Virus record (IMG/VR): IMGVR_UViG_3300044712_002679 | Coordinates: 116,406-180,405 of that record | Strand: one strand, 5' to 3' | Source of the DNA: a virus | Length of the DNA: 64,000 nt | Shown here: positions 4,890 through 46,673 of the stretch, piece after piece | How positions within the stretch are numbered: position 1 is the first letter of the stretch | How the letters are laid out: every line of letters starts with the position of its first letter | Made by a program: the position numbers and the translations under genes | Notes under the pieces: model-generated | Databases searched by the model: none | What the model was told of the DNA's origin: nothing | The model's input: only the letters and a program-made list of their open reading frames with translations

Positions 4890-5091
4890 TCTATGTAAAG
4901 ATTGAATCTGCTAATGATAAAGGATATGAAGTTGAAAAATTTGAATTGGATTCCCACGTTTTTTATTTAATTCAAATTGGTGAAAAAGTTGATGTAAAAA
5001 TTAATTATGATAGGTATAATAATAAAACATCTGTTATGGGTATTGATGAATATTATTATCATAATTATTTAAATGACTATTGAATATTTTG

Positions 5092-5178
5092 TGTGCTAGG
5101 TGGGACTCGAACCCACGGTGAAGCTTACGCTTATCTGATTAAGAGTCAGGACCGTTCGCCAACTACGGATACTAGCAC
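5092..5178 (-). tRNA. class-II (long variable arm) tRNA with anticodon CUU and discriminator A73
   Basis: 7-bp acceptor GTGCTAG/CTAGCAC, T-arm GTGGG-TTCGAGT-CCCAC, anticodon loop CTCTTAA (U33, CUU, A37), 17-nt variable arm with AAGC/GCTT stem; 87 nt. Confidence 0.55.
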
Positions 5179-5186
5179 ATTTTTTG

Positions 5187-5258
5187 CAGGCTGACAAGGA
5201 TTCGAACCCTGATCTAGAGATTTGGAGTCACTTATGCTAACCGTTGCACCATCAACCT
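5187..5258 (-). tRNA. tRNA-Trp (CCA)
   Basis: acceptor AGGTTGA/TCAGCCT (one G-U), T-arm CAGGG-TTCGAAT-CCTTG, anticodon loop CTCCAAA; one U-U mismatch in anticodon stem. Confidence 0.65.
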
Positions 5259-5271
5259 ATTACATAACTAT

Positions 5272-5304
5272 AAAATGGCAGCAAATTCAATTTGCTGCCA
5301 TTTT
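5272..5304. other. perfect 14-bp-arm palindrome (AAAATGGCAGCAAATT-ca-AATTTGCTGCCATTTT) between two tRNA genes
   Basis: read directly; followed by T-run in the direction of tRNA transcription. Confidence 0.7.
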
Positions 5305-5307
5305 ATT

Positions 5308-5443
5308 GTGGAGAAAGAAGGATTCGAACCCCCGACACACGGCTCCCATTGCTTAGATTTTTGGTTTGCTGTGCATAATTTTTACTTTCGACAAATTACG
5401 TTTTTCTCTTTTTACGTTGCTCTACCAACTGAGCTATTTCTCC
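5308..5443 (-). tRNA. interrupted tRNA: canonical 5' acceptor/D-arm and T-arm/3' acceptor separated by ~60-nt AT-rich insert
   Basis: 5' GGAGAAA-TA-GCTCAGTTGGTAGAGC... and ...GGGGG-TTCGAAT-CCTTC-TTTCTCC-A pair perfectly as one acceptor stem; anticodon arm not resolvable. Confidence 0.5.
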
Positions 5444-5450
5444 ATTTTTT

Positions 5451-5948
5451 TTATTCAGGTAAATCCCAAATATAATACTTATCTTCTTTTTCATATATTG
5501 TATCACGAGGTTCCAAATCAATATCTTCCAAATATCCAATACAATTATGAAAATTAGCCGAATCTGTATGATTCCATCTACTGTAATCATCATGTGTTCT
5601 TTGAAAATATGTAGTCAAAAATGATTCAATATATCCATGGTGTACCAATAGTGAATTGCTTGTATAAAAACATATCTTATGACCATTAATTATAGCAAAT
5701 GAAAAATTTATGTATACTGGTAATGTTTCAGATTTAATTTTACCATTTCCGTTAATATTCAATTCTATTATATAATAAGACCACCCCCTACTTACTTCTT
5801 CCCAATTATATTTAGGATCATTGTGATAATCTTGCCACAAATTAAATCTTTCTTCACTTGTTGCTTCAACTATCCATTCTACATCTTCTAAATAAGAATT
5901 TCCTAACTTTTTGTGTAAATAATTCCTGTTGTTTAATCCTACATCCAT
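5451..5948 (-). CDS. hypothetical protein (165 aa)
   Basis: clean ORF between tRNA genes; no motif recognised. Confidence 0.5.
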   Translation of the reverse strand: MDVGLNNRNYLHKKLGNSYLEDVEWIVEATSEERFNLWQDYHNDPKYNWEEVSRGWSYYIIELNINGNGKIKSETLPVYINFSFAIINGHKICFYTSNSLLVHHGYIESFLTTYFQRTHDDYSRWNHTDSANFHNCIGYLEDIDLEPRDTIYEKEDKYYIWDLPE

Positions 5949-6011
5949 AATATCAAATTTAATGTTTGATATTTTTAGATATAAATAAATGAAAAGTTTA
6001 ATAATTTTTTG

Positions 6012-6104
6012 CGGAGAATGTCAGGCTCGAACTGACACACCAGATTACTCATCCGATGACAAGTTTTCAAAACTAGGACGATACCAATTTCGTTTTAATT
6101 CTCC
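6012..6104 (-). tRNA. tRNA-Ser (UGA)
   Basis: 93 nt, acceptor GGAGAAT/ATTCTCC + G73, anticodon loop TTTGAAA, long variable arm, T-arm GTCAG-TTCGAGC-CTGAC. Confidence 0.65.
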
Positions 6105-6108
6105 AAAG

Positions 6109-6182
6109 GGGTAAATTACAGATTCGAACTGTAACTAAGTGAACCACAATCACCCATGCTAACCATTAACACCAATTTACCC
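6109..6182 (-). tRNA. tRNA-His (GUG) with genomically encoded G-1 pairing C73
   Basis: G-1 + GGTAAAT/ATTTACC + C73, anticodon loop TTGTGGT, T-arm TACAG-TTCGAAT-CTGTA. Confidence 0.75.
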
Positions 6183-6185
6183 ATA

Positions 6186-6995
6186 TTACCAATTCATTTT
6201 TCTTCCTTTTTTCCAACCATTTAATAAATAATCATTTAAATCTTTTTTATTTATCTTGATACATTTTTTTTCATTTTCACATATTATCCAACATTTTCCA
6301 AATTGTGAATTCTTTTCACCTTTTTGGGATATTGAATTTGCTTGACCAATTTTTATTTTAGTTTCATCTGAATGTTTTCTATTAACCCAAAATGATATTA
6401 ATTCACCATTAATATATCGTTCATCATCTTTACTAACTAGCATCACCTTATCTATATTATCTTTAACTAGTACTAGTCCTTTGTGTATTGATATTAATTC
6501 ACCATTAATATATCGTTCATCAGTATTAAAAACATTAAAAATATTACCATCTTTATCTTTACATATAATTCTATTTTTTTGTATAGATATCAATTCACCA
6601 TTAATATATCGTTCATCATCTTTACTAACTTTCAAAATATTACCATCTACATCATTAACCACAATTTTATTTTGAAATATTGGTCTATATTTATCTAAAT
6701 TATTATTTATATAATACCAACCACCACTTCCACCCAAAGTTAAATTGTAATATTCTTTAGAATTAACCACATCTTCATTTACTAATTCTTTTTCTTTTTT
6801 TAACATATCTTCTTTAGATTTACAAAAATGCAATATAACTTTTTCAAAATTATCAACACCATATTTATTTATAGCATTTTTTAAATATTTACCCGACCCC
6901 ATATAATCATCAAAAATATTTTCTGTTACATGACAGCCAATATATTTTTTATTATTAATTTTATTGGTTATTTCATAAATAATATAATTTTTCAT
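6186..6995 (-). CDS. GIY-YIG homing endonuclease with C-terminal tandem ~22-aa repeats
   Basis: N-terminus KNYIIYEITNK...KYIGCHV...MGSGKYLKNAINKYG (GIY...YIG + catalytic block); start moved to internal ATG 6995 to avoid overlapping tRNA 7056-7132; repeats (ERYINGELISI) encoded by DNA repeats 6390-6665. Confidence 0.7.
   Translation of the reverse strand: MKNYIIYEITNKINNKKYIGCHVTENIFDDYMGSGKYLKNAINKYGVDNFEKVILHFCKSKEDMLKKEKELVNEDVVNSKEYYNLTLGGSGGWYYINNNLDKYRPIFQNKIVVNDVDGNILKVSKDDERYINGELISIQKNRIICKDKDGNIFNVFNTDERYINGELISIHKGLVLVKDNIDKVMLVSKDDERYINGELISFWVNRKHSDETKIKIGQANSISQKGEKNSQFGKCWIICENEKKCIKINKKDLNDYLLNGWKKGRKMNW
6390..6665. repeat. imperfect tandem DNA repeats (unit containing caccattaatatatcgttcatca) inside GIY-YIG gene
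   Basis: at least three near-identical ~35-bp blocks at ~6397, 6496, 6596. Confidence 0.65.
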
Positions 6996-7055
6996 AACTT
7001 TTTTATTTGTATATATTAAATAAAAAAGTTCGATTTTAGTTCGAATTAAATTTTT

Positions 7056-7132
7056 GGGTGAAAGACGGGGTACGATCCCGCAAAGTTCCTGGTTCACAGC
7101 CAGGCAAGTCTACCAATTCCTCTACAATCACC
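7056..7132 (-). tRNA. tRNA-His-like (anticodon GUG, G-1:C73) with A54/U58-swapped T-loop and two U-U acceptor mismatches; possibly degenerate
   Basis: anticodon arm CCTGG-CTGTGAA-CCAGG, T-arm GCGGG-ATCGTAC-CCCGT. Confidence 0.4.
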
Positions 7133-7142
7133 ATAATTATTG

Positions 7143-7214
7143 TCAACCAGATGGGATTCGAACCCACGTAAACCGTGATTCACAATCACGTCCCGAACAC
7201 CAAACACGGGTTGC
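7143..7214 (-). tRNA. tRNA-His-like (GUG) with E. coli-like T-arm GTGGG-TTCGAAT-CCCAT, G-1:A73, weak D-arm; possibly degenerate
   Basis: anticodon arm CGTGA-TTGTGAA-TCACG perfect; acceptor CAACCCG/CTGGTTG with one mismatch. Confidence 0.4.
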
Positions 7215-7222
7215 TGGAGGGG

Positions 7223-7308
7223 CGGAGAAAACAGGAATCGAACCTGCACCCCAGTTACCCGAGGAACGGTTTTCCAAACCGTTGCAGTACCATTATGCTT
7301 ACTTCTCC
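7223..7308 (-). tRNA. tRNA-Ser (GGA)
   Basis: 86 nt, acceptor GGAGAAG/TTTCTCC + G73, anticodon arm ACGGT-TTGGAAA-ACCGT, variable-arm hairpin CCTCGG/CTGGGG. Confidence 0.65.
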
Positions 7309-7535
7309 AATTTTTTAAATTTTTCTTTTAATTTTTCTTTTACTTCATCAGAAGTATAATACCATTTCATATTAATTTGCATTTCAGAAATGATAATTCC
7401 CCATTCTGCTTTTGCTGAAAATTGTGGTTTGTATTTAATTCTTTGATAAATAAATATAAATGGCACACATAAATACCAACGATATCTAATTATTCTTTCA
7501 ATTAAATTGCATTCTTGAAATCTTTTATTTTTCAT
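7299..7535 (-). CDS. hypothetical small protein (78 aa) within tRNA array
   Basis: ORF in tRNA-free gap; start assignment uncertain. Confidence 0.3.
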   Translation of the reverse strand: MKNKRFQECNLIERIIRYRWYLCVPFIFIYQRIKYKPQFSAKAEWGIIISEMQINMKWYYTSDEVKEKLKEKFKKLEK

Positions 7536-7554
7536 AATTTATACATTTTTTAGC

Positions 7555-7638
7555 GGAGAGAAAGGGGGTCGAACCCTCAAGCCGAATAAACGACCGACAG
7601 ATTAGCAATCTGCTCCAATACCATTATGGGACCTCTCC
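7555..7638 (-). tRNA. tRNA-Ser (GCU)
   Basis: acceptor GGAGAGG/TCTCTCC + G73, anticodon arm GCAGA-TTGCTAA-TCTGT, long variable arm. Confidence 0.65.
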
Positions 7639-7728
7639 AAAATCAGAATACATTTTGTGGGTTTGAACCACGTTAACAAAGTTTCAGTTTGTATTTTAAC
7701 CTTTTGTTTTTGCTGTGCGTATTCTTTG

Positions 7729-7801
7729 TGGGGTAGACTGGTTACGATCCAGTTCCTATGGATTTTCAGTCCACCGCAATGACCACATCTGCCACTACCC
7801 C
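7729..7801 (-). tRNA. tRNA-Phe (GAA) with A54/U58-swapped T-loop (ATCGTAA)
   Basis: acceptor GGGGTAG/CTACCCC + A73, anticodon arm GTGGA-CTGAAAA-TCCAT, T-arm ACTGG-ATCGTAA-CCAGT. Confidence 0.65.
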
Positions 7802-7810
7802 AATTATTTG

Positions 7811-7894
7811 CGGAGAAAAAGGGATTCGAACCCCCACACCAGTTTCCCGATTTCACTGTTTTCGAAACAGCTAACTACACCAATAGGCTTCTCC
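7811..7894 (-). tRNA. tRNA-Ser (CGA)
   Basis: acceptor GGAGAAG/TTTCTCC + G73, anticodon arm GCTGT-TTCGAAA-ACAGT, long variable arm. Confidence 0.6.
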
Positions 7895-8055
7895 AAGTTC
7901 AGAATACTTTTGTGACATCGAATCACGACAAATTTCAAGTTTGCTTTACCTTTTTTTGCTGTATGTATTCTTTTTTGTGGACTGTATCGGATTTGCACCG
8001 ATTGTTAGCATAATTACTTTTTTGGTTTGCTATGCTTCAAAAAGCAACAGCCCAT

Positions 8056-8676
8056 TTATTTTTTATATTTATTTTTATTTTTTCCACCATGTGTATCTAA
8101 TGTTGCATTACAATTTGGACATAATATTCTTAAATTTGTTAATCTATGATCATTATTTATCCCATTTATATGATCTAATATTAAACTTATATGTTTTCCT
8201 TTCCAATTTTCATCTTGTCCACACATTTCACACTTTCTTTTTTTTAATCCATCTTCATATAATCTTTCTTTCAAATGTGTTGTATTAAAATTGGAATTTT
8301 CAACTAATATTAATGATAAATCTATTTTTTTATTTAAATTTTTTATTTGAAATTCATATTTAATAAAATGATCAATATTTATATCATATTTTTTAATATA
8401 TTTTTTTAATGTGTTATAAGAAGAACCAAAATTATTAATATCTAATTTAATTAAACATTCTTTATATGTTTTTGAATTTTTAACAATTTCAATTAAATAA
8501 TCTTTTTCATATTTATTTTTTACACTATAATGTGCTTCTATTTTTAATTTTTTTCGTCTTTCCTCAATTGATCTTATTGATCTATCTAATTTAGTTAAAC
8601 AATATTTTAAACCATAAATAGGATAATTTTCAATCAATATATCATCTTCATTTTTTGTCCATTTTTTATTTTTCAT
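8056..8676 (-). CDS. HNH homing endonuclease
   Basis: C-terminal CEMCGQDENWKGKHISLILDHINGINNDHRLTNLRILCPNCN (Cys pairs + DH...N...H...N HNH core); located inside tRNA array. Confidence 0.75.
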   Translation of the reverse strand: MKNKKWTKNEDDILIENYPIYGLKYCLTKLDRSIRSIEERRKKLKIEAHYSVKNKYEKDYLIEIVKNSKTYKECLIKLDINNFGSSYNTLKKYIKKYDINIDHFIKYEFQIKNLNKKIDLSLILVENSNFNTTHLKERLYEDGLKKRKCEMCGQDENWKGKHISLILDHINGINNDHRLTNLRILCPNCNATLDTHGGKNKNKYKK

Positions 8677-8767
8677 TTTAAGTTATTTTTTGTAGTATAT
8701 ATAAATATTTTAAACTACAAAAAATCACTATGAACTATAAAAATTCAAAAAAATAGTTATGGGAATG

Positions 8768-8848
8768 CACGACAGAGAGGATTCGAACCCCTGAACCTTT
8801 CGGTATAGTTTTGGAGACTATCAGCTTTAACCACTTGCATACTGCCGT
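8768..8848 (-). tRNA. tRNA-Trp-like (CCA) with 12-nt extended variable region; D-stem poorly formed
   Basis: acceptor ACGGCAG/CTGTCGT, anticodon arm ATAGT-CTCCAAA-ACTAT perfect, T-arm AGGGG-TTCGAAT-CCTCT. Confidence 0.45.
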
Positions 8849-8867
8849 ATATTTTTGCGGAGGCGAA

Positions 8868-8951
8868 GGGAATCGAACCCCCAAATCATTACTGATTTAC
8901 TTGTTTTCAAGACAAGCCCCTCGTCCATTCGGACCACCTCCAAATACAATT
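8868..8951 (-). tRNA. tRNA-Ser (UGA), second copy
   Basis: acceptor GGAGGTG/CGCCTCC + G73, anticodon arm CTTGT-CTTGAAA-ACAAG, variable hairpin AAATCA/TGATTT. Confidence 0.65.
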
Positions 8952-9001
8952 TAAAAGATTGTTCGTTATTTTTTGCTGTATGTATTCTTTGTGGGGTGAG
9001 G

Positions 9002-9077
9002 TGGATTCGAACCACCATCCCTGGATTTTCAGTCCAGTGCGAAACTGACCAACTGCGCTACCACCCCAATAAGTATA
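9002..9077 (-). tRNA. tRNA-Phe (GAA), second copy, with enlarged D region (extra hairpin CAGT-TTCGC-ACTG)
   Basis: acceptor GGGGTGG/TCACCCC + A73, anticodon arm CTGGA-CTGAAAA-TCCAG, T-arm GGTGG-TTCGAAT-CCACC. Confidence 0.55.
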
Positions 9078-9094
9078 ACGTATGTGCGTCTGGT

Positions 9095-9167
9095 GGGTCA
9101 CGATCCCACGACTCCATCATTAAAAGTGATGTACTCTACCAACTGAGTTACAGACGCAAAAATATTC
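9095..9167 (-). tRNA. tRNA-Lys (UUU), canonical class I, A54/U58-swapped T-loop (ATCGTGA)
   Basis: acceptor GCGTCTG/CAGACGC + A73, D-arm ACTC-AGTTGGTA-GAGT, anticodon arm CATCA-CTTTTAA-TGATG. Confidence 0.75.
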
Positions 9168-9196
9168 AATATGTCAATGAACTTTAAAAAAAATTG

Positions 9197-9282
9197 TGAT
9201 CCCGATGGGACTCGAACCCATGTACAACTTTCGTATCCCACATTAAAAGTGTGGTGCCTCGTTCCAACTCGGCCACGGAATC
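9197..9282 (-). tRNA. class-II (long variable arm) tRNA with anticodon UUU and discriminator A73
   Basis: acceptor GATTCCG/CGGGATC (one G-U), 3-bp D-stem GCC/GGC, anticodon arm CCACA-CTTTTAA-TGTGG perfect, 16-nt variable arm, T-arm ATGGG-TTCGAGT-CCCAT. Confidence 0.55.
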
Positions 9283-9302: not shown

Positions 9303-9345
9303 AAAAAAAATCCGAACTTTTTACGGTTCGGATTTTTCTGTTTTA
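9303..9345. terminator. bidirectional intrinsic terminator (ATCCGAAC...GTTCGGAT hairpin between A9 and T-run) bounding the tRNA array
   Basis: 8-bp inverted repeat read directly. Confidence 0.65.
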
Positions 9346-14144: not shown

Positions 14145-14632
14145 ATTGGTAATATGTGAAATTCTTTTAAAAATATATAATTTACAATATATTCCCAATT
14201 AGGGAATTCTTTAGAACCAAATTTTATAAATTCACCTTTAAAATCTAATTGTCCATGCATATCAGTATCATCAATTAGATAATCTCCAATATGTAAAGAT
14301 TTATCACATGACATATCAAGTCTTTCTAATGTTTCAAATCCTAAATGTTCAAGAACCCAATATGCTTTTTCTGTATAACTATTTAGATTATATATTGATG
14401 GTCGAGTTAAAATACGAACTTCAAAATATTCTTCAAGTTTTTTAAATGCTTTAATTGCACCTGGGATTTCTTCCAATTTAATAAAAAATCCAAACTGTGA
14501 TTGTGGATATTTTTGTGTTGGACATTTTTCCAAATCATTTAAATATGCCTTTGCAAAATTGCAAAGAACCCCATCTAAATCCACATATATTATTTTATTT
14601 TTTTTCATTTTTAAAATTTTTAAATTTTTCAT
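14141..14632 (-). CDS. HAD-family 5'(3')-deoxyribonucleotidase
   Basis: N-terminal IIYVDLDGVLCNF (DxDGVL motif I of HAD deoxyribonucleotidases). Confidence 0.65.
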   Translation of the reverse strand: MKNLKILKMKKNKIIYVDLDGVLCNFAKAYLNDLEKCPTQKYPQSQFGFFIKLEEIPGAIKAFKKLEEYFEVRILTRPSIYNLNSYTEKAYWVLEHLGFETLERLDMSCDKSLHIGDYLIDDTDMHGQLDFKGEFIKFGSKEFPNWEYIVNYIFLKEFHILPI

Positions 14633-15389
14633 ATTTTCTATTCAAATATATATCAGACAAATTTTCTTCATAAATATAATTTAAAAAATTAAATGCATCT
14701 CTATACAAATATAATCTATTTGTTGAATAATGTTTTAAAATTTTTGTTTTTTTTGTTATTATTTTATTTTTTTCTAAAAAATCTTGAATTTGTTCTAAGC
14801 ATTCTTTAGTTGATATTAAATTTACTTTTATTCTATTATTATCTTTACCATATATTGTTAATGATCCATCACCATCAAACATACCAGCTATAAAATTCAA
14901 ATAATATTTTTCATCTATGTTTTTAATAATGAAATTATCACTTTTTTCAACATTTATATATTTTTGTAATTTTTTTGTGAATAAATTATTTGTAATAGAT
15001 ATTACATATGAAGTATATTCTTTATTGTTTCTTTTGTCAATAGTTGTATTTTTAACAATTTTATGTTCAGATTCTAATGACTTTTTAAATTTTATTAATA
15101 TTTCTTCATCTTTAGATACTAATCTAACTTTATTATTTTTTAAACAACCATCTGCAACAATAAAACCTAACCAATACGCTTTTTCTTTCGTGTCAATATT
15201 ATCAAAATATGATATATTGAATTTTAATTTGCTTTCATTTAACCTATTTCTATTTGTATTAATATTATTGTTTCTTAATATATTACTTACTGTTACTTGT
15301 GATATATTTAATTTTTTTGATATTTCAATTTGTTTATTTGTTAACGATAAATTAATTATTTCTGTTATTAAATCTTTATTTATTTTCAT
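14595..15389 (-). CDS. LAGLIDADG homing endonuclease (two-motif, monomeric type)
   Basis: AYWLGFIVADGCL and NFIAGMFDGDGSL motifs; N-terminal HTH-like segment. Confidence 0.7.
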   Translation of the reverse strand: MKINKDLITEIINLSLTNKQIEISKKLNISQVTVSNILRNNNINTNRNRLNESKLKFNISYFDNIDTKEKAYWLGFIVADGCLKNNKVRLVSKDEEILIKFKKSLESEHKIVKNTTIDKRNNKEYTSYVISITNNLFTKKLQKYINVEKSDNFIIKNIDEKYYLNFIAGMFDGDGSLTIYGKDNNRIKVNLISTKECLEQIQDFLEKNKIITKKTKILKHYSTNRLYLYRDAFNFLNYIYEENLSDIYLNRKYEKFKNFKNEKK

Positions 15390-15441: not shown

Positions 15442-15882
15442 TTATATATTAATATTAAAATCTCGTTTTATTCTAATTTTTTCTTCTCGATCAAAAATAG
15501 AATTTTTTTTATCATACAGTTTTTTTCCTTTGGCAATACAAATTGTTACTTTACAAAGACCTTGTTTATTAACAAACATATTCAAAGGAATTATTGTTAA
15601 TCCTTTTTCTTTTATTTTGACTTTAAGTTTTTTTAATTCTTTTTTTGTTAATAATAATTTTTTTGGTCGTTTTGGATCATGATTAAATTGATTTGCAAAT
15701 TCATATTCATCAATATGACAATTTACTAAATATAAATCGTTTCCTGTAAACGAACAAAAACTTTCAGATAATGATGCTTTACCCTTTCTTATTGATTTTA
15801 TTTCTGAACCCACAAGCTGAATCCCCGCTACGATTTCATCTTCTATAAAAAATTCGTAGTATGCTTTTTTATTTTTTATCAT
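15442..15882 (-). CDS. smpB: SsrA-binding protein SmpB
   Basis: aligns along full length with E. coli SmpB by eye ([24 protein letters not shown] / [40 protein letters not shown] / KVKIGVAKGKKQHDKR). Confidence 0.85.
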   Translation of the reverse strand: [146 protein letters not shown]

Positions 15883-19927: not shown

Positions 19928-20329
19928 TTATTTACAATAATAGCAAAAATTATAACCTGAATTAACCCGTCTAGTCAAACATTTTTGACACCATTCATTA
20001 TTTCCTTTGCGCAATTCTATTTCCGATTTAGTTAAAGCAACATTATAATTTTGTTTTCGATTGGTTATTTTATTTAATTTTGGATTATATTTTTTAATCA
20101 AGTCATATTCTAAATCAAGCATATCTGTTTGATTTTCACATATTTTTATTACTTCAAAAATCAAATCCTTTCCATTAGCTTTATGCCAACGAAATCTATC
20201 ATTTGGAACTTGGACTGTTGTACCAATATAGACAAGTTCTTTTGTTTTTTTATCAAGACCTTTATAAATATAAAAACCTTTTGAAAAAATAAGATTTTTA
20301 TTTTTTGCACACAATAAATCAGATTCCAT
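19928..20329 (-). CDS. GIY-YIG endonuclease with C-terminal Cys4 zinc finger
   Basis: GFYIYKG...ELVYIGTT...R...H and CQKC...CYYCK. Confidence 0.7.
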   Translation of the reverse strand: MESDLLCAKNKNLIFSKGFYIYKGLDKKTKELVYIGTTVQVPNDRFRWHKANGKDLIFEVIKICENQTDMLDLEYDLIKKYNPKLNKITNRKQNYNVALTKSEIELRKGNNEWCQKCLTRRVNSGYNFCYYCK

Positions 20330-28620: not shown

Positions 28621-29154
28621 ATGAAGCAAAAAGAATCAGAAAACAGAATTAATTATTCAATTAAAGATTTAACCGTAAGGTTAGTTGGTGATAATGTTAC
28701 AAATGGTGTAATTGACACTAAAAGTGCAATAAAATTGGCTAGAGATATGGAATTAGATTTGGTCGAAATTTCGGGTCCAGTTAACGGAAATCCATCAATT
28801 TGCAAAATAGTTGACTATCAAAAATATCTTTACGACAAAAAGAAAAAAGATAAAGATCAAAAGAAAAAGCAAAAATTAAGTCAGTCAGAAGTCAAAGAAA
28901 TTAGAATGACCCCGCATACTGATGAACACGATTTTAATTTTAAATTAAATCATGCTAAAAACTTCTTAACCAATAACGATAAAGTATTAGTTTCAGTATT
29001 CTTTAAGGGTAGAGAAATATCATATAAAGAACAAGGTCAAATTGTTTTATTAAAATTTGCAAAGGAATTGGAAGATATTGGCATACCTGAGTATTTACCT
29101 AAACTAGAAGGAAAAAAAATGCTAATGATGATTAAACCTAAACCAAAAAAATAA
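28621..29154 (+). CDS. infC: translation initiation factor IF-3
   Basis: aligns by eye with E. coli IF3 across N- and C-domains (NRIN..VRL.G; DLVEISP.A.PPVCRI.DY.K.LY; KKKQK...VKEI..P..DEHD...KL.....FL; GRE). Confidence 0.85.
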   Translation: MKQKESENRINYSIKDLTVRLVGDNVTNGVIDTKSAIKLARDMELDLVEISGPVNGNPSICKIVDYQKYLYDKKKKDKDQKKKQKLSQSEVKEIRMTPHTDEHDFNFKLNHAKNFLTNNDKVLVSVFFKGREISYKEQGQIVLLKFAKELEDIGIPEYLPKLEGKKMLMMIKPKPKK

Positions 29155-39680: not shown

Positions 39681-40418
39681 ATGTCAAAAATAATCGAATT
39701 AATAAAGATCCATTTTGGTGATAATTCATTTACACCATATGGGCAATGGATTAAAATATTTAAACTTTTTGTTGAAAATTCATCTGAATCAACCAAACAT
39801 AAAATTGATCAAATAGATGAATTTATAAATAAATGGATTGAAAAAGAATATGGTGATTGGTCTATTCCAAATACAATTATAGAAGCCAAAGAAAAATTAG
39901 AAAATAAAATTAATGTTTTTTATGAAATATTAAAAGAATATTCTATAAATAATGAAAAAATTAAAAAAATTATAATAATTCCTGATACTAATGCGCTAAT
40001 ACAAAAACCTGATCCAAAGTCATATAAACAATTAATGAATAACGATAATCTAACGATTATTTTTTTACCTACTGTGTTAAGTGAACTAGATGAACTTAAA
40101 ATTAAAACTTCAAATTTAGATTTTCAAGAAAAAGTAAAATCAGTAATAAATAGATTAAAAGGATATAGAAAACAAGGCAACTTAATTGATGATGATGTAA
40201 CAGTCGAAAAAACAATAAAACTTAAAATGGTTGCATCAGAACCAAATTTTGATAAAACGTTATCTTGGCTTGATAGAAATAACAATGATGATCGGATAGT
40301 TGCAAGTGCATTAGAAATTCAACGGGATAATCCTTCTTCTGTTGTTTGTTTAATAACAAGTGACATAAATTTTCAAAATAAAATAATGATGGCAAAATTA
40401 CCATACAAAGATATATAG
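39681..40418 (+). CDS. PIN-domain nuclease with unknown N-terminal domain
   Basis: IIIIPDTNALI (D), PTVLSELDEL (E/D), NDDRIVASAL (D), LITSDINF (D) in canonical PIN order. Confidence 0.55.
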   Translation: MSKIIELIKIHFGDNSFTPYGQWIKIFKLFVENSSESTKHKIDQIDEFINKWIEKEYGDWSIPNTIIEAKEKLENKINVFYEILKEYSINNEKIKKIIIIPDTNALIQKPDPKSYKQLMNNDNLTIIFLPTVLSELDELKIKTSNLDFQEKVKSVINRLKGYRKQGNLIDDDVTVEKTIKLKMVASEPNFDKTLSWLDRNNNDDRIVASALEIQRDNPSSVVCLITSDINFQNKIMMAKLPYKDI

Positions 40419-40488: not shown

Positions 40489-41808
40489 ATGACAAAAACA
40501 GAAGAATTTATCCAAAAAGCGAAACTTGTTCACGGGGATAAATATAATTATTCTAAAGTCGAATATATTAATAATCACACTAAAGTTACTATTATTTGTC
40601 CAAAGCATGGTGAATTTAAACAACAACCAGCAAATCATTTAAATAATATGGGTTGTCCAAAATGTGTTGGCAATATAAAATTAACAACAACAGATTTTTT
40701 ATCAAAAGCAAAAGAAATTCATGGGGATAAATATGATTATTCAAAAGTTGAATATGTCGGAATATTTAATCACGTGAAAATAATTTGTCCAATTCATGGG
40801 GAATTTGAACAAACACCAAGACAACATCTTAAAGGTCGTGGGTGTTATAAATGTGGTGGTACACAAAAATATACACAAAATGAATATGTTATAAAAGCAA
40901 AGGAACTTCACGGGGATAAATATGATTATTCAAAAGTTAATTATTTGGGTGGTAGAAAAGATATAATTATAATTTGTCCTAAACACGGTGAATTTAAACA
41001 AAAAGCTGGTCAACATATACATGGTTCAGGTTGTCCAAATTGTGCTGGATTAGGGTTTATATTTCTATCATTTGAAGAAGCAAAAATTTTTGTTAAAAAT
41101 CTTAATTTACAAACACAAAATGAATGGCAAAAATATTGTAAATCGGGAAATAAACCTGATAATATACCAATAGCACCCGAAATTGTTTATAAAAAAGTTT
41201 GGATTAACTGGGGTGATTGGTTGGGTACATTTAAAATTTCAAATCAAAAAAAAGAATATTGGACATTTGAAGAAGCTAGAATATTTGTTAGAAATCTTAA
41301 TTTAAAATCAATAACAGAATGGAAAAGATATTGTAAAAATGAAAATAAACCTAGCAATATTCCAAATGATCCATACGGAACGTATAATAAATATGGTTGG
41401 TTAAATTGGGGTGATTTTTTAGGCTCATTTACATTAGCACCAAAAGATAGACAATATTTATCATTTGAAGAAGCAAGAAATTTTGTTAGAACACTTAATT
41501 TAAATTCAAAAGAAAAATGGGTAAATTATTGTAAATCGGGAAGTAAGCCTAACAATATTCCAAATGATCCATATAGTTATTATAAAGATGATGGTTGGAT
41601 TGATATGGGGGATTGGTTGGGTACATTTACAATTGCCCCACGATATAAACAATTAAATTATCTTTCAGAAGAAGAATTCATACAATTTATTAAAGATACA
41701 TTTCCAAATTTATATGGTGCTGAACTTCATAAAGCATATGAAGCTTGGTGGGATGAAAATAAACCAGAATATTTACCAAAGGATGTTGCTAAATATTATA
41801 ATAAATAA
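40489..41808 (+). CDS. repeat-family protein 1: 4 N-terminal Zn-ribbon modules + 5 x ~57-aa KSGNKP.NIP/WGDWLG repeats + conserved C-terminal tail
   Basis: modules HGDKYDYSKVEY..(K)V.IICP.HGEF.Q.P..HL.G.GCP.C x4; repeats (FEEAR.FVR.LNL.S...W..YCKSGNKP.NIP.DP...Y...GW..WGDWLGTF); tail LSEEEFIQFIKDTFPN...AYEAWWDENKPEYLPK. Confidence 0.7.
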   Translation: MTKTEEFIQKAKLVHGDKYNYSKVEYINNHTKVTIICPKHGEFKQQPANHLNNMGCPKCVGNIKLTTTDFLSKAKEIHGDKYDYSKVEYVGIFNHVKIICPIHGEFEQTPRQHLKGRGCYKCGGTQKYTQNEYVIKAKELHGDKYDYSKVNYLGGRKDIIIICPKHGEFKQKAGQHIHGSGCPNCAGLGFIFLSFEEAKIFVKNLNLQTQNEWQKYCKSGNKPDNIPIAPEIVYKKVWINWGDWLGTFKISNQKKEYWTFEEARIFVRNLNLKSITEWKRYCKNENKPSNIPNDPYGTYNKYGWLNWGDFLGSFTLAPKDRQYLSFEEARNFVRTLNLNSKEKWVNYCKSGSKPNNIPNDPYSYYKDDGWIDMGDWLGTFTIAPRYKQLNYLSEEEFIQFIKDTFPNLYGAELHKAYEAWWDENKPEYLPKDVAKYYNK

Positions 41809-41811
41809 TTT

Positions 41812-43515
41812 ATGTCAAAAAAACGACCTTTTTTATCATTTGAAAATGCTAGATTTTTTTCACGATCTATTAATTTAAAAAGTGGGAAAGAATGGAAAGA
41901 ATTTTGCAAATCAGGTAATAAGCCTGATAATATACCAACAAATCCATATGAAGTATACAAAAAAGAATGGATTAGTATGGGTGATTGGTTAGGGACATTT
42001 TCGGTTCATACTAAAAATTTTTTATCATTTAATGAAGCAAGAATTTTTGCTAGATCAAATAATTTCAAAAATAGAGAAGATTGGAAATTATATTGTAAAT
42101 CGGAAAATAAACCTAATAATATTCCGACAAATCCATATGAAGTATACAATAAAGAATGGATTAGTTGGGGGGATTGGCTAGGAACAAAAATAGGATTTGA
42201 AGGATTTTTATCATTTGAAGAAGCTAGAAATTATGTTAGAAATCTGAACTTAAAATCAAATAAAGAATGGTATAAATATTGTAAGTCAGGAGATAAGCCT
42301 GATAATATTCCATCTACACCAAATAAAAAATATAAAAATTGTGGTTGGACTAATTGGTATGATTGGTTTGGAACAAAAATTGAATTTGAAGGATTTTTAT
42401 CATTTGAAGAAGCTAGAAATTATGTTAGAAACCTGAATATAAAATCATCAAATGATTGGGCTAAATATTGTAAATCTGGAAATAAACCTAATAATATTCC
42501 AAGTAATCCACGTGAAGTATATAAAAATGAATGGAATGATTGGGGTGATTGGTTAGGAACATTTACTATATCAACACAAAACTATGTGTATTTATCATTT
42601 GATGATGCAAGAAATTTTGCTAGAAATCTTAATCTAAAAACACAAACATATTGGAGGAAGTATTGTAAATCGGGAAATAAACCTGATAATATACCAAGTG
42701 ATCCATCCAAAGGTTATAAAGATAAAGGTTGGCTTAGTTGGGGTGATTGGTTAGGTACAAAAATTGGATTTAATGGGTTTTTACCATTTGAAGATGCAAG
42801 AAATTTTGTTAGAAATCTTAATCTAAAAACCCAATATGAATGGAAAGTGTATCTTAATAGTGGAAACAAACCTAACAATATTCCAAATAAACCACGGGAT
42901 GTATATAAAGATTGGATTAGTATGGATGATTGGTTAGGTACTTTTGTGATATCAACCCATAAACAAAAATTTTTATCATTTGATGAAGCAAGAATATTTG
43001 TTAAAAATCTTAGATTAATCGGTAAAGATGATTGGTATAATTATTGTAAAAGCGGAAACAAACCAACGGATATTCCAACTACACCCAATACCGTTTATAG
43101 TGAATGGGTGGGTTGGGGTGATTGGTTAGGAACATATAATATAGCATCATTTGATAAAGAATTTTTATTGTTTAATGATGCGAGAAATATTATTAGAAAC
43201 AAAAATTTTAAAAATCAAAATGAATGGTTTGAATATTGCAAATCGGGAAATAAGCCAAAAAACATTCCAAGTGATCCATCAAAAACCTATATAAATGATT
43301 GGATTGATTGGGGTGATTGGTTGGGTACATTTACTATTGCAACCCAAAATAAACAATTAAATTATCTTTCAGAAGAAGATTTCATACAATTTATTAAAGA
43401 CACATTTCCAAATATTCCACCTGGAATTGAACTTCGCAAAGCATATGAAGCTTGGTGGGATGAAAATAAACCTGATTATTTACCAAAGGATGTTGCAGGA
43501 TACTACAATAAATAA
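41812..43515 (+). CDS. repeat-family protein 2: ~9 tandem ~57-aa repeats + conserved tail
   Basis: same repeat and tail as 40489-41808; 3-nt intergenic spacing. Confidence 0.7.
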   Translation: MSKKRPFLSFENARFFSRSINLKSGKEWKEFCKSGNKPDNIPTNPYEVYKKEWISMGDWLGTFSVHTKNFLSFNEARIFARSNNFKNREDWKLYCKSENKPNNIPTNPYEVYNKEWISWGDWLGTKIGFEGFLSFEEARNYVRNLNLKSNKEWYKYCKSGDKPDNIPSTPNKKYKNCGWTNWYDWFGTKIEFEGFLSFEEARNYVRNLNIKSSNDWAKYCKSGNKPNNIPSNPREVYKNEWNDWGDWLGTFTISTQNYVYLSFDDARNFARNLNLKTQTYWRKYCKSGNKPDNIPSDPSKGYKDKGWLSWGDWLGTKIGFNGFLPFEDARNFVRNLNLKTQYEWKVYLNSGNKPNNIPNKPRDVYKDWISMDDWLGTFVISTHKQKFLSFDEARIFVKNLRLIGKDDWYNYCKSGNKPTDIPTTPNTVYSEWVGWGDWLGTYNIASFDKEFLLFNDARNIIRNKNFKNQNEWFEYCKSGNKPKNIPSDPSKTYINDWIDWGDWLGTFTIATQNKQLNYLSEEDFIQFIKDTFPNIPPGIELRKAYEAWWDENKPDYLPKDVAGYYNK

Positions 43516-43518
43516 TTT

Positions 43519-44823
43519 ATGTCAAAAAAATTAACAACAGAAGAATTCATTATTAAAGCCAAAGGTGTTCATGGTGATAAATATGATTATTCTAAAGTTG
43601 ATTATGTTAATAATCATATTAAAGTTACTATTATTTGTCCAATACATGGTATTTTTGAACAAACACCAAGTAATCATTTACAAGGTAAGAATTGTATTAA
43701 TTGTGGTTCTTATAATCAATCTAATACCATAAAAAATAAAAATATATCATTTGAAGAATCAAGAAATTTTGTTAGAAATCTTAATTTGAAATCGCAAAAA
43801 GAATGGAATAAATATATTAAATCAGGTAATAAACCTGATAATATTCCAAGTATGCCAAATCGAATATATAAAAATAAAGGTTGGATTAGTATGGGTGATT
43901 GGTTAGGAACTTTTACAATAGCATCATATAAAAAAATTTTTTTACCATTTGAAGAAGCAAGAATTTTTGCTAGAAATCTTAATTTAAATTCACAAAAAGA
44001 ATGGTTAAAATATCGAAAATCTGATAATAAACCTGATAATATTCCAAGTAATCCATATAGTGTATATAAAAATGATGGTTGGTTATCATGGGGTGATTGG
44101 TTAGGAACAAAAAATGATTTTAATGGATTTTTACCATTTGATGATGCTAGAAATTTTGCTAGAAATCTTAATTTAAAACCATATGATAAATGGAAAAAAT
44201 ATTGTAAATCAGGAAATAAACCTAACAATATTCCAAGTAGTCCTGATAAAGTATATAAAAATAAAGGTTGGATTGATTTTGGTGATTGGTTAGGTTATAA
44301 AAAAGATTTTTTATCATTTGAAGAAGCCAGAACTTTTGTTAGAAATCTTAATTTAAAATCACAAAAAGAATGGATTGAATATTGTAAATTAGGAAATATG
44401 TTAGATAATATACCAAGTAATCCACAACATACTTATAAAAATAAAGGTTGGATTAGTTGGGGTGATTGGTTAGGCACATTTACTATTTATAAAAACAATT
44501 TTTTACCATTTGAAGAAGCAAGAATATTCGCAAGAAATCTTAATTTAAAATACAAAAAGAAATGGATTGATTATTGTAAATATGGTAATAAACCAAATAA
44601 TATTCCATCTGATCCATATCGTACATATAAAAATAATGGATGGGTTAGTTTTGGTAATTGGTTAGGTACTGAATATTTATCGGAAGAAGAATTCCAACAA
44701 TTTATTATTGATAATTTTTCAGATGTTCATCCTGATGATATGAATAAATTTTATGAAATATGGTGGAATGATAATCAACCAATTAATTTACCAAAATATC
44801 CAAAAGAATATTATAATAAATAA
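43519..44823 (+). CDS. repeat-family protein 3: 1 Zn-ribbon module + ~6 repeats + tail variant
   Basis: HGDKYDYSKVDYVNNHIKVTIICPIHGIFEQTP..HLQGKNCINC then repeats; tail LSEEEFQQFIIDNFSDVHPDDM. Confidence 0.7.
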   Translation: MSKKLTTEEFIIKAKGVHGDKYDYSKVDYVNNHIKVTIICPIHGIFEQTPSNHLQGKNCINCGSYNQSNTIKNKNISFEESRNFVRNLNLKSQKEWNKYIKSGNKPDNIPSMPNRIYKNKGWISMGDWLGTFTIASYKKIFLPFEEARIFARNLNLNSQKEWLKYRKSDNKPDNIPSNPYSVYKNDGWLSWGDWLGTKNDFNGFLPFDDARNFARNLNLKPYDKWKKYCKSGNKPNNIPSSPDKVYKNKGWIDFGDWLGYKKDFLSFEEARTFVRNLNLKSQKEWIEYCKLGNMLDNIPSNPQHTYKNKGWISWGDWLGTFTIYKNNFLPFEEARIFARNLNLKYKKKWIDYCKYGNKPNNIPSDPYRTYKNNGWVSFGNWLGTEYLSEEEFQQFIIDNFSDVHPDDMNKFYEIWWNDNQPINLPKYPKEYYNK

Positions 44824-44877
44824 AATAAAAATTTTTTAAAAAACTTACAATAAATTTGCTTTTTCGTAATAAAAACT

Positions 44878-44885
44878 TATATTTG
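44878..44885 (+). promoter_or_regulatory. TATATTTG promoter-like element upstream of 44914
   Basis: TAnnTTTG. Confidence 0.4.
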
Positions 44886-44913
44886 CACAATGTTTAATTA
44901 AAAATATAAGTTT

Positions 44914-45546
44914 ATGAAAAAGTTTTTATCATTTGAAGAAGCAAAGGCATTTGCACAAAGTTTAAATTTAAAATCCTTAAAGGATTGGAAAGATTACTGT
45001 AAATCGGGTAACAAACCTAATAATATTCCAAATGATCCGTACAGTGCATATAAAAACAACAATTGGATTTCGTGGGGTGATTGGTTGGGTACATTTAGGG
45101 TTTCGAATAGGAACAAACAGTTCATATCTTTTGAAGAAGCAAAAGAAATTATCAAAAAATTAAATTTGAAAAACCGAAAAGATTATGAAAAATATCAATC
45201 AGATATGATTGAAAAACTTAATAATGCGACTGTACCAACAAATCCAAATGTTGTATATAGTAGTTCTTGGAAAAGTTGGAATGATTTTTTGGGTATAGAA
45301 CCAAATGAATTTCTTCCATTTGAAGAAGCAAGGAATTTTGTGCGATCACTTAATTTAAAAAGTGTTCGGGATTGGGAAAAATACAGAAAACAAAAACCTG
45401 ATAATATTCCATCTTTACCAAGTAGTTATTATAAAGAAAAATGGATAAATTGGGGGGATTGGTTAGGAACAAACAATGTTGCTACTAAATACGTATCATT
45501 CGAAGATGCAAAAAATATTGTTCGTAAATTAAAAGATTCAAAATGA
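44914..45546 (+). CDS. repeat-family protein 4 (short; ~3.5 repeats, no Zn ribbon, no tail)
   Basis: same repeat unit. Confidence 0.65.
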   Translation: MKKFLSFEEAKAFAQSLNLKSLKDWKDYCKSGNKPNNIPNDPYSAYKNNNWISWGDWLGTFRVSNRNKQFISFEEAKEIIKKLNLKNRKDYEKYQSDMIEKLNNATVPTNPNVVYSSSWKSWNDFLGIEPNEFLPFEEARNFVRSLNLKSVRDWEKYRKQKPDNIPSLPSSYYKEKWINWGDWLGTNNVATKYVSFEDAKNIVRKLKDSK

Positions 45547-46670
45547 AAAAGGAATTTTTACCATTTGAAGAAGCAAGAACATTCGTAAGATGCCTTAATT
45601 TAAAATCTTTTAAAGATTGGAAAAAATATTGTAAATCTGGAAATAAACCTATTAATATCCCATCTTGTCCTCATGTTATATATAAAAATGATTGGATTAG
45701 TTGGGGGGATTGGATAGGAACATTTTCAGTTCATACTAAAGAATTTTTACCTTTCGAAGAAGCAAGAAATTTTGTTTATACTAAAAATTTGAAAAATCAA
45801 GCTGAATGGTGGATATATTGTAAATCTGGAAATAAACCTGATAATGTGCCGTGTTCACCTGACATAATTTATAAAAATAATGGTTGGAATGGTTGGTATG
45901 ATTGGTTTGGATATGATAAAATATCGGTTTTAAAAAATAACTTCATAATAAAAGCTAACATTGTCCATAATAATAAATTTGATTATTCAAAAGTTAATTA
46001 TATTAATGTTAAAAATAAAGTTATAATTGGATGTCCCATACATGGTGATTTTGAACAAACTATAAATGGACATTTAAATGGTAGGGGGTGTTCAAAATGT
46101 GCTAAAATTGATTATAGATCATTTGAAAATGCTAGAAATTTTGTTCATTCTTTAAATTTACAAACGAATGCGGAATGGATAATTTTTAATAAAAGCGAAA
46201 ATATGCCTAAAGATATTCCACATAACCCAAATGTTGTATATAAAGATAATGGTTGGATTAGCATAGGTGATTGGTTAGGAACAAATTCAATTGCACCACA
46301 ATATATGAAATATAGAACATTTGAAGAAGCTAAAATTTTTGCACAAAAGCAAAATTTAAAATCTAAAGATGAATGGAAAGTATTTAAAAAATCCGAAAAT
46401 TTTCCTATTGATATACCTAAAAATCCAAACGTTACATATAAAGATAATGGATGGATTTCTTGGGGTGATTTTTTAGGTACATTTACATTAGCACCAAAAA
46501 ATATATCAAAAAATTATTTATCGGAAGAAGCAGCCAAACAATTTCTTATTGCTAATTTTTCAGATGTTCATCCCGATGATATGGATGATGCTTATGAAAA
46601 ATGGTGGAATAATAATCAACCAATTAATTTACCAAAACATATAAAATTACATTATAAATTGTTTTATTAA
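45543..46670 (+). CDS. repeat-family protein 5: repeats flanking an internal Zn-ribbon module + tail
   Basis: HNNKFDYSKVNYINVKNKVIIGCPIHGDFEQTINGHLNGRGCSKC internal; tail LSEEAAKQFLIANFSDVHPDDM. Confidence 0.65.
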   Translation: MKKEFLPFEEARTFVRCLNLKSFKDWKKYCKSGNKPINIPSCPHVIYKNDWISWGDWIGTFSVHTKEFLPFEEARNFVYTKNLKNQAEWWIYCKSGNKPDNVPCSPDIIYKNNGWNGWYDWFGYDKISVLKNNFIIKANIVHNNKFDYSKVNYINVKNKVIIGCPIHGDFEQTINGHLNGRGCSKCAKIDYRSFENARNFVHSLNLQTNAEWIIFNKSENMPKDIPHNPNVVYKDNGWISIGDWLGTNSIAPQYMKYRTFEEAKIFAQKQNLKSKDEWKVFKKSENFPIDIPKNPNVTYKDNGWISWGDFLGTFTLAPKNISKNYLSEEAAKQFLIANFSDVHPDDMDDAYEKWWNNNQPINLPKHIKLHYKLFY

Positions 46671-46673
46671 AAA

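Follow-up and report, generated by a model that had tools for sequence, protein, structure and literature searches.

The 64,000-nucleotide stretch of phage DNA analysed here (positions 116,406 to 180,405 of IMG/VR record IMGVR_UViG_3300044712_002679; the window in what follows) carries, at 9197-9282 on its minus strand, a transfer RNA (tRNA) gene that combines the lysine anticodon UUU with the class II shape, that is with a long variable arm. In textbook tRNA biology such an arm belongs only to the tRNAs of leucine, serine, tyrosine (in bacteria) and selenocysteine. The gene is real and conserved under structural selection, and is not a decayed copy. Judged from its sequence, it quite likely encodes a true acceptor of lysine built on a class II scaffold.

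ARAGORN called a tRNA-Lys(ttt) at 9196-9282 on the minus strand, and the Rfam tRNA model RF00005 matched 9197-9282 with 53.8 bits (E = 9.5e-10), above its gathering score of 29. The minimum-energy fold of the single sequence is a cloverleaf, with an acceptor stem of 7 base pairs (bp), GAUUCCG/CGGGAUC, that includes one U-G pair, a perfect 5-bp anticodon stem (CCACA/UGUGG) and a perfect T-arm (AUGGG-UUCGAGU-CCCAU). U8, A14, G18G19 and the T-loop UUCGAGU are all present, the anticodon loop is that of class I Lys tRNAs letter for letter, and no CCA end is encoded in the gene. The variable region of 16 nucleotides (nt), where class II starts at 10 nt, together with a covarying arm stem and the 3-bp D-stem GCC/GGC, places the molecule in class II; the class I architecture that every Lys tRNA described so far shows, with a 4-5 nt variable loop and a 4-bp D-stem, is absent. 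The tRNA-Lys marks that it carries are the anticodon UUU and the discriminator A73. Within the variable arm, a 2-bp stem (A-U and C-G, plus a U.U), a GAAA (GNRA-like) loop and a 4-nt 3' tail GUAC are kept. The 4-bp variable stem that ARAGORN proposes for the single sequence was dropped: two of its pairs break in the homologues L047 and L063 whereas the 2-bp register covaries, and the latter was therefore adopted. The preliminary description of this DNA had given the acceptor stem, 3-bp D-stem, anticodon stem and loop, variable-arm length, T-arm and A73 of this gene, and all these details are correct when the minus strand is read.

Homologues of the window tRNA, here designated family B, were collected from IMG/VR with the anticodon arm and from the JGI metagenomes with the anticodon arm plus the first three variable-region bases. 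An IMG/VR scan for the exact window D-arm GCCGAGTTGGNNNGAGGCA had returned only five chance matches in non-tRNA DNA; the D-loop of the homologues varies slightly, and it was the anticodon arm that recovered them. The family comprises L029, L042/L090/L093, L045/L101, L047, L063/L102, L095, L099 and L100, and a copy identical to the window tRNA lies on a separate metagenome contig, L097. UUU and A73 are invariant in all family B homologues, which were fetched through the anticodon arm and come from ten or more independent contigs; since the anticodon stem served as the search key, its own invariance follows from the design of the scan. These anticodon-arm searches found no homologue with a Leu or Ser anticodon. 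In the alignment of ten distinct sequences, 99.5% of the proposed-pair cells hold standard pairs and 7 pairs show compensatory change. None of 500 shuffles matched this compensatory count, and sliding the 3' partners lowered pairing to about 35-42%. The first pair of the variable-arm stem covaries (AU/UA/CG), the second is C-G in all seven sequences that have letters there, and the loop is GNRA-like or AAAA.

The preliminary description had treated this gene and a second class II tRNA, with anticodon CUU, as a coherent set covering both Lys codons and not as a product of decay. That view holds: the CUU tRNA at 5092-5178 is real (47.7 bits with Rfam), both UUU and CUU are borne by long-arm tRNAs within the window, and the homologues keep UUU and A73 and show compensatory changes. 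It had also proposed comparison with related arrays, in case the locus should prove to be an altered tRNA-Leu(UAA). No ordinary tRNA-Leu(UAA) is found at the locus in the arrays compared; long-arm Lys-anticodon tRNAs are found instead, three in LR745206 (two UUU and one CUU, beside a class I Lys(UUU)) and one, with UUU, in LR756504. Against cultured and deposited phages, a megablast with the array as a whole gave no match.

The lysyl-tRNA synthetase (LysRS) of Escherichia coli reads mainly the anticodon U34-U35-U36 and A73, with U35 and U36 as the main determinants. At the 42 core positions of the acceptor, anticodon arm, T-arm and discriminator, the window tRNA is the same as the class I tRNA-Lys(UUU) of LR756501 at 38. 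When acceptor plus T-arm are compared, 46 of the 60 nearest neighbours are Lys tRNAs. Outside the Lys tRNAs, its D-arm comes closest to that of long-arm Trp, Tyr and Cys tRNAs. Profile hidden Markov models were built for each isotype from phage tRNAs and, with the anticodon masked, gave 36.0 bits for Lys, 23.6 for Ser, 21.7 for Leu and 15.0 for Tyr, the Lys score being inflated because many of the training Lys tRNAs were fetched via the same anticodon arm. In a control with the whole anticodon arm masked, the own isotype scored best in 11/12 other ARAGORN tRNAs of the window (15.6-42 bits), and on the Ser profile the window Ser tRNAs reached 32-42 bits; only the long-arm Trp tRNA at 8768-8848 deviated, its best profile being Tyr (16.1 bits). 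From the arm comparisons and the profiles, the molecule is best described as a hybrid, with Lys-type arms at both functional ends and a class II middle. The preliminary description had spoken of a Leu/Ser-type scaffold bearing a foreign anticodon. This does not fit, as the acceptor, anticodon and T arms are Lys-like and A15-U48, G73 and an arm stem of 5-6 bp are all absent. The earlier interpretation was thus in part right: the set is coherent and conserved, yet probably lysine-accepting rather than a Leu/Ser-type adaptor.

Other assignments of the gene were tried and rejected. For tRNA-Leu, A73 fits; the 15-48 pair is G15-C48 and not A15-U48, the anticodon is UUU, and the Leu profile gives 21.7 bits, or 12.3 with the whole anticodon arm masked. 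A tRNA-Ser would carry G73 and not A73, the kept arm stem is of 2 bp with a 4-nt tail, and the Ser profile with the arm masked gives 15.9 bits. A73 and the arm geometry fit a tRNA-Tyr, but the anticodon is UUU and not GUA and the Tyr profile is the lowest of the class II profiles (15.0 bits). In an allo-tRNA the acceptor/T branch would be 8/4 or 9/3; here it is the standard 7/5, backed by covariation.

The meaning of the Lys codons was read from an alignment of the family B DNA polymerase of the window and 57 homologues (51-57% identity), taking the columns conserved to 80% or more. All 18 AAA/AAG codons in such columns fall on conserved lysines and none on conserved Leu, Ser or Tyr. Reassignment is thereby excluded as the main meaning of AAA/AAG, which leaves room for low-level mischarging, and the suggestion in the preliminary description that the reading of Lys codons might be altered is not borne out. 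Lysine accounts for about 9% of the polymerase codons (42/456).

The window tRNA is not isolated among phage tRNAs. ARAGORN, run on the window and the loci L001-L102, returned 1,089 tRNAs, 807 of them unique; a variable region of at least 12 nt was counted as a long arm. Besides Lys, the long arm is found among these 807 on tRNAs for Asn, Thr(UGU), Trp, Cys, Met and Val, with isolated examples of a few more. Of the 63 unique long-arm tRNAs outside Leu, Ser and Tyr, 61 have the discriminator that prevails in class I tRNAs for the amino acid of their anticodon. The long-arm marks are A73 for Lys, G73 with U1-A72 for Asn, U73 for Cys, U73 for Thr, G73 with A1-U72 for Trp, and A73 for Met and Val. 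A73 occurs in 92/92 class I and 28/30 long-arm phage Lys tRNAs. An origin as Leu or Ser tRNAs with mutated anticodons does not suit this pattern: discriminators would then be uniformly A or G, but each keeps the set of the synthetase predicted by its anticodon. The same is seen within a single family, family A, to which the CUU tRNA of the window belongs and which switches from A73 to G73 when its anticodon goes from Lys to Asn.

In geometry, the long arms consist of a 3-4 bp stem and a 3-4 nt 3' tail and come nearest to phage tRNA-Tyr; the tail of Leu tRNAs is 1-2 nt, and Ser tRNAs have a 5-6 bp stem and a 1-nt tail. The 15-48 pair is G15-C48 in 23/29 long-arm Lys and 9/9 long-arm Asn tRNAs, compared with A15-U48 in 39/40 phage Leu tRNAs. 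A class I Lys(UUU) accompanies the long-arm Lys(UUU) tRNA in 19 of 28 loci; the median distance between the two is 162 nt. Among tRNAs outside the search patterns, the long-arm share is highest for Lys(UUU) (9/35) and Thr(UGU) (5/25), and no long arm was seen on Arg(ACG), Arg(UCU), Gln, Glu, Pro or Ala. The long-arm Asn tRNAs all belong to family A. The converse was also observed: 12 unique phage 'tRNA-Leu' of 74-77 nt have a short variable region of at most 6 nt (for example L008 7114-7189, L016 12876-12949 and one in L109). Since these short-arm 'tRNA-Leu' exist beside the long-arm tRNAs, phage arrays cross the boundary between class I and class II both ways.

BLAST with the CUU tRNA of the window led to long-arm 'tRNA-Lys' genes in unrelated cultured phages, those of the Caulobacter phiCbK group and Xanthomonas phage X1. 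The Caulobacter phage CcrRogue has, at 50365-50451 and 50457-50546 of JX100814, long-arm Lys tRNAs of 87 and 90 nt, with anticodons CUU and UUU, beside tRNA-Leu genes; they are its only Lys tRNAs, and GenBank labels them plainly 'tRNA-Lys'. The phiCbK genome paper lists these genes simply as tRNAs and does not comment on their shape. Scanning IMG/VR for the family A D-arm CCGUAGUUGGYCGAACGG gave 17 loci, all 17 of them tRNAs. The family A body carries either Lys CUU/UUU with A73 or Asn GUU with G73 and mostly U1-A72. In the alignment of its 18 distinct sequences, pairing holds in 98.7% of cells; compensatory change is seen at 17 of the 25 pairs, all four of the variable stem among them. In 185,579 bacterial and archaeal species genomes (one genome each), the same D-arm had 34 matches, 31 of which are chance occurrences in non-tRNA DNA. 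The other 3 lie in tRNAs, each inside a dense array with 6-15 tRNAs per fetched stretch of 2.9-8 kb, a hallmark of phage DNA. As these are the only tRNA loci in species genomes and all sit in dense arrays, family A appears to be restricted to phages. Carriers of long-arm Lys tRNAs differ widely, with GC contents of 25-66% and sizes between about 200 kb and more than 600 kb.

The best explanation overall, which we favour with a little better than even confidence, is that the window gene encodes a genuine Lys tRNA on a class II scaffold that acts as a counter-defence variant, for which we infer charging, ribosomal use and nuclease resistance. An ordinary phage tRNA-Lys(UUU) would have kept its acceptor, anticodon and T arms, and its D-arm and variable region would have been rebuilt to the class II shape. 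The host LysRS would most likely charge the long-arm tRNA with lysine, and the charged tRNA would read AAA codons, and by wobble AAG, together with the class I copy encoded 40 nt away. The protruding arm next to position 44 and the remodelled D-loop may hinder the docking of a nuclease and leave aminoacylation and decoding intact.

Several anticodon nucleases of bacterial defence act on the isoacceptors concerned. The PARIS effector AriB acts on Lys(UUU), Thr(UGU) and Asn(GUU), recognises U36AAUC|A41 and cuts between positions 40 and 41 (PMC12409363). In an AlphaFold 3 model the AriB dimer grips the anticodon stem at about 40/41 and its second active site faces U16-U17 of the D-loop (PMC12409363). 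Phage T5 escapes AriB via variant Lys, Thr and Asn tRNAs (PMC11464382, PMC12409363). From Thr(UGU), Lys(UUU), Asn(GUU) and Val(UAC), P2-OLD removes the anticodon arm; phage Thr tRNAs rescue its effect (PMC12445682). tRNA-Lys(UUU) is cut as well by bacterial Schlafen (PMC13056530) and by PrrC (PMC10264068). Because Lys(UUU), Thr(UGU) and Asn(GUU) are known targets of PARIS or OLD nucleases, the long-arm form may be a counter-defence variant, and because the arm at position 44 and the rebuilt D-loop sit where the nucleases are proposed to dock, steric escape is plausible. The window tRNA is moreover, as rescue tRNAs are, a phage-encoded copy of an isoacceptor that these nucleases cut. Indirect signs of resistance are G at position 40, where the AriB site has C, and the placing of the remodelled D-loop and arm at the tRNA contacts of the AriB model. 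As the specific reason for the long arm, counter-defence may be proposed only tentatively, at somewhat short of even confidence.

A number of observations weigh against this account. The locus sample, fetched through Lys and Asn patterns, is biased. When the whole anticodon arm is masked, the window tRNA scores 17.8 bits for Lys, 15.9 for Ser and 12.3 for Leu, so that its body is marginally Lys-like and ambiguous; as the arm-masked profiles are ambiguous for both long-arm Lys tRNAs of the window, no claim of Lys identity is made from the body alone. A73 is common to Lys, Leu and Tyr tRNAs, and thus does not by itself exclude the leucyl- or tyrosyl-tRNA synthetase (LeuRS, TyrRS) for the Lys members. 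Family A members of Caulobacter phages (CcrRogue, L001 285-371 and 377-466) and one borne by a metagenome-assembled genome (L109 1358-1446) have U73 and not A73; U73 fits none of the Lys, Leu, Tyr and Ser identities as known from E. coli, and may reflect a different host LysRS in these cases. Position 40 of the AriB site is G and not C both in the window tRNA (UAAUG) and in its class I neighbour, and with C40 already absent from both copies the arm is not needed for escape from an AriB-like enzyme. Long-arm Met, Trp and Cys tRNAs are not known targets of PARIS or OLD. Finally, the proposed link to defence is a correlation drawn from E. coli systems.

Other explanations differ in the amino acid they assign to the molecule or in the use they assign to its arm. 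An unlikely though not negligible one (the lysine-accepting tRNA whose arm serves elsewhere) draws on the same evidence for Lys identity, and supposes that the arm is a handle for a phage factor, such as a modification or array-processing enzyme, an aminoacyl-tRNA synthetase or an elongation factor, or that Lys-tRNA is used outside the ribosome. Huge phages encode many translation factors, SmpB and IF3 being present in the window; aminoacyl-tRNAs act as donors in phage DNA hypermodification, as with Mom, which uses Gly-tRNA-Gly (PMC13219725); and the long arms on Met, Trp and Cys tRNAs, outside the known PARIS/OLD targets, would be accommodated too. No candidate partner protein was found in the window, however, a single dedicated factor is unlikely across phages of 25-66% GC and about 200 kb to more than 600 kb, and the spread over many amino acids does not suit a single non-ribosomal pathway. 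It is improbable that LeuRS, TyrRS or the seryl-tRNA synthetase (SerRS) charges the class II body and so places Leu, Tyr or Ser at AAA/AAG, with ambiguity or reassignment during infection. The class II D-arm and variable arm would allow it, as would A73, which is the Leu and Tyr discriminator too, the Tyr-like arm geometry with its short stem and 3-4 nt 3' tail, U35, which is common with tRNA-Tyr, and the ambiguous body-only profiles; the nev-tRNAs, charged with Leu in vitro, set a precedent (PMC3333845). Against this, discriminator and 1:72 pair follow the anticodon in 61/63 cases, including G73 (Asn, Trp) and U73 (Cys, Thr), which LeuRS and TyrRS would not favour; the A15-U48 pair of phage Leu tRNAs (39/40) is missing, as is G73, and the arm stem is of 2-4 bp versus 5-6 bp in Ser tRNAs. 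The conserved polymerase codons (18/18 Lys, 0 on conserved L, S or Y) are equally adverse, and CcrRogue has long-arm tRNAs as its only Lys tRNAs. With Lys at about 9% of polymerase codons, such a substitution would be highly damaging. That the UUU and CUU long-arm tRNAs are charged with Tyr or Leu for a deliberate ambiguity or reassignment of AAA/AAG, a viral recoding of sense codons, is highly improbable; the data argue against it and would be compatible with partial mischarging, A73 and U35 being as in tRNA-Tyr.

It is also quite improbable that the RNA is an untranslated decoy whose Lys anticodon stem-loop soaks up or misleads nucleases or sensors of tRNA-Lys. Its anticodon loop is the same as in functional Lys tRNAs, and the AriB paper raises competition by phage tRNAs (PMC12409363). 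The AriB string UAAUC (36-40) is kept more often in family A than in class I for Lys CUU (7/7 versus 12/24) and Asn (9/9 versus 15/32), counts that share ancestry, are not phylogenetically independent, reverse their trend for Thr and amount to a hint only. A decoy would have no need of a discriminator and first base pair that track the anticodon, nor of a fully conserved acceptor stem, T-loop and D-loop G18G19, and CcrRogue has no other Lys tRNAs to rely on. Decay of a tRNA-Leu(UAA) or tRNA-Ser through point changes, or a chance tRNA-like sequence, has next to no probability and is in practice refuted by conservation. The class II shape and the doubtful elements of the array (the ARAGORN 'His' at 7142-7220 and the interrupted tRNA-like at 5309-5443) would suit it. 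Against this, UUU and A73 are retained without exception and with compensatory changes across ten or more independent contigs, the separate contig L097 has an identical copy, none of the homologues recovered bears a Leu or Ser anticodon, and the Rfam score is high.

The long-arm Lys gene lies at one end of a tRNA array that ARAGORN places at 5091-9282 on the minus strand (Table 1). The window has 25% G+C, and the nearest relatives of its family B DNA polymerase fragment, with 41-48% identity, belong to the uncultured huge phages LR756501-LR756504 and LR745206, of 630-735 kb. It also codes for homing endonucleases, methyltransferases, a helicase, SmpB and IF3; the last two indicate that the phage invests in translation. 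ARAGORN found no gene for transfer-messenger RNA in the window.

Table 1. Coordinates of the long-arm Lys tRNA gene, its parts, and other features of the window
Feature	Position	Strand	Evidence
Long-variable-arm, class II shaped tRNA, anticodon UUU, 86 nt (family B)	9197..9282	-	ARAGORN, Rfam, cloverleaf fold, homologues with compensatory changes
Class II type D-arm GCC-GAGUUGGAACGA-GGC: 3-bp stem, 12-nt loop with A14, G15, G18, G19	9256..9273	-	
Anticodon UUU, positions 34-36 (9247-9245), in loop C-U-UUU-A-A (9249-9243)	9245..9247	-	ARAGORN anticodon position 36
Variable arm GAUACGAAAGUUGUAC, 16 nt between anticodon and T stems	9222..9237	-	Alignment and pair counts
Discriminator A73	9197..9197	-	Sequence; census of phage Lys tRNAs
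Class I tRNA-Lys(UUU), partner copy 40 nt downstream of the long-arm gene	9085..9157	-	63.6 bits Rfam; ARAGORN
Family A long-arm tRNA with Lys anticodon CUU (D-arm CCGUAGUUGG(Y)CGAACGG; Y missing in the window copy)	5092..5178	-	ARAGORN; Rfam 47.7 bits
Long-arm tRNA-Trp(CCA), 81 nt, variable region ACCGAAAGGUUC, Trp marks A1-U72 and G73	8768..8848	-	ARAGORN; Rfam 46.8 bits
Class I tRNA-Trp, partner of the long-arm Trp	5187..5258	-	
Hairpin flanked by T/A runs, immediately 5' of the long-arm Lys tRNA (minus strand)	9306..9337	.	Sequence
Homing-endonuclease genes in or near the array	6186-7097, 8056-8676, 14595-15389, 19928-20329	-	
SmpB	15442-15882	-	178 bits
IF3	28621-29154	+	Both domains
PIN-domain protein	39681-40418	+	

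The class I neighbour, which the preliminary description had called a canonical tRNA-Lys(UUU) at 9095-9167, does exist, ten bases away from that position; it is not fully canonical, since its T-loop is AUCGUGA, that is A54...U58 instead of T54...A58. The swap of A54 and U58 against the universal T54-A58 (T-loop AUCGUNA) is found in one tRNA-His, one tRNA-Phe and this class I tRNA-Lys(UUU) (7057-7131, 7729-7801 and 9085-9157, all on the minus strand), and in about 25 of the 807 unique phage tRNAs. The pair of long-arm and class I Trp tRNAs is the same phenomenon as the Lys pair, and similar long-arm Trp tRNAs occur in L029, L049 and L070. Through the swapped T-loops and the long arms, the array thus holds two structural versions each of His, Phe, Lys and Trp tRNAs. 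Upstream of the long-arm Lys gene, the hairpin at 9306-9337 looks like a terminator closing the upstream unit. No convincing promoter was found; the sigma-70 scan gave 27 sites against 31.7 expected and is uninformative at 25% GC.

Other elements of the array are less regular. The tRNA-like element at 5309-5443 (minus strand, Rfam 45.5 bits) has normal acceptor, D and T arms and about 55 extra nt in the anticodon arm; ARAGORN calls it Leu(AAG) with a 55-nt intron when introns are allowed, and an intron and a disrupted gene are among the candidate explanations. ARAGORN's third 'tRNA-His', at 7142-7220 (minus strand), has two acceptor-stem mismatches and no Rfam match, and a weak Rfam tRNA match lies at 6014-6102 (minus strand; 25 bits, below threshold); either may be a decayed copy. 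Two tRNA-Ser, at 7811-7895 and 8859-8941 (minus strand), score higher on the Rfam tRNA-Sec model (32 and 43 bits, threshold 47) than on the general tRNA model, and one of them has its ARAGORN anticodon at position 31, which suggests an unusual D-arm. Homing endonucleases are interspersed: inside the array lie a GIY-YIG SegE-like gene and an HNH gene, and close to it a LAGLIDADG gene and a further GIY-YIG gene. The T4-type endonuclease SegB was described in a 2026 paper as amplifying tRNA anti-defence loci (PMC13096335). Farther away, at 40489-47426 on the plus strand, six adjacent genes carry 'integrase repeat unit' (INT_rpt) motifs, some of them together with treble-clef zinc-finger or DUF723 domains.

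The nearest known parallel in function is provided by the rescue tRNAs of phages, which, like the window tRNA, are extra copies of nuclease-cut isoacceptors. In both, anticodon loop and cognate identity marks are preserved, and departures from the host form could keep a nuclease off; the window tRNA moreover has G for C40 where AriB cuts. Known rescue tRNAs are class I and owe their escape to a substitution or two, located in the D-loop or the anticodon stem, whereas here the whole D-arm and variable region are rebuilt and resistance is presumed. The nematode nev-tRNAs (PMC3333845, PMC4300185) likewise are class II tRNAs with anticodons of class I families, Gly(CCC) or Ile(UAU), and are conserved in their lineage. 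They are eukaryotic, have Leu identity and are charged with Leu in vitro, whereas in the phage tRNAs discriminator and acceptor follow the anticodon and A15-U48 is absent. The allo-tRNAs of bacteria and metagenomes (PMC5389517, PMC7609411) likewise join a long arm to anticodons outside Leu, Ser and Tyr; they have an 8/4 or 9/3 branch and Ser or Ala identity and are charged by their body, in contrast with the 7/5 branch, A73 and short arm stem of the window tRNA. Both nev-tRNAs and allo-tRNAs follow the identity of the body, which is the opposite of the anticodon-tracking discriminators of the long-arm phage tRNAs. Among ordinary class II tRNAs, bacterial and phage tRNA-Tyr (A73, 3-bp arm stem, 3-nt 3' tail) is nearest in arm geometry and shares A73 and U35, but its anticodon is GUA where the window tRNA has UUU with Lys-like acceptor and T arms. 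tRNA-Leu(UAA) has the class II shape, A73 and the 3-bp D-stem in common with the window tRNA and differs in A15-U48 versus G15-C48 and in a 3' tail of 1-2 nt versus 4 nt.

No prior description of long-arm Lys, Asn, Thr or similar phage tRNAs was found in the full-text literature open without subscription. What appears to be new, on sequence grounds, is the existence of conserved, phage-restricted long-arm isoacceptors for Lys, Asn, Thr, Trp, Cys, Met and Val with their own identity marks; the Lys genes among them already stand in GenBank as 'tRNA-Lys'. The hypothesis is testable in the cultured carriers phiCbK and CcrRogue (Caulobacter) and X1 (Xanthomonas). If these tRNAs are charged according to their anticodons, annotation pipelines would have to stop treating long-arm genes as oddities, and LysRS, the asparaginyl- and threonyl-tRNA synthetases (AsnRS, ThrRS) and others would tolerate a class II body, which would be useful for the design of orthogonal or nuclease-proof tRNAs. 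For the phages themselves, the long arm would represent a second, structural route of escape from tRNA-cutting immunity, besides point mutations in the anticodon stem.

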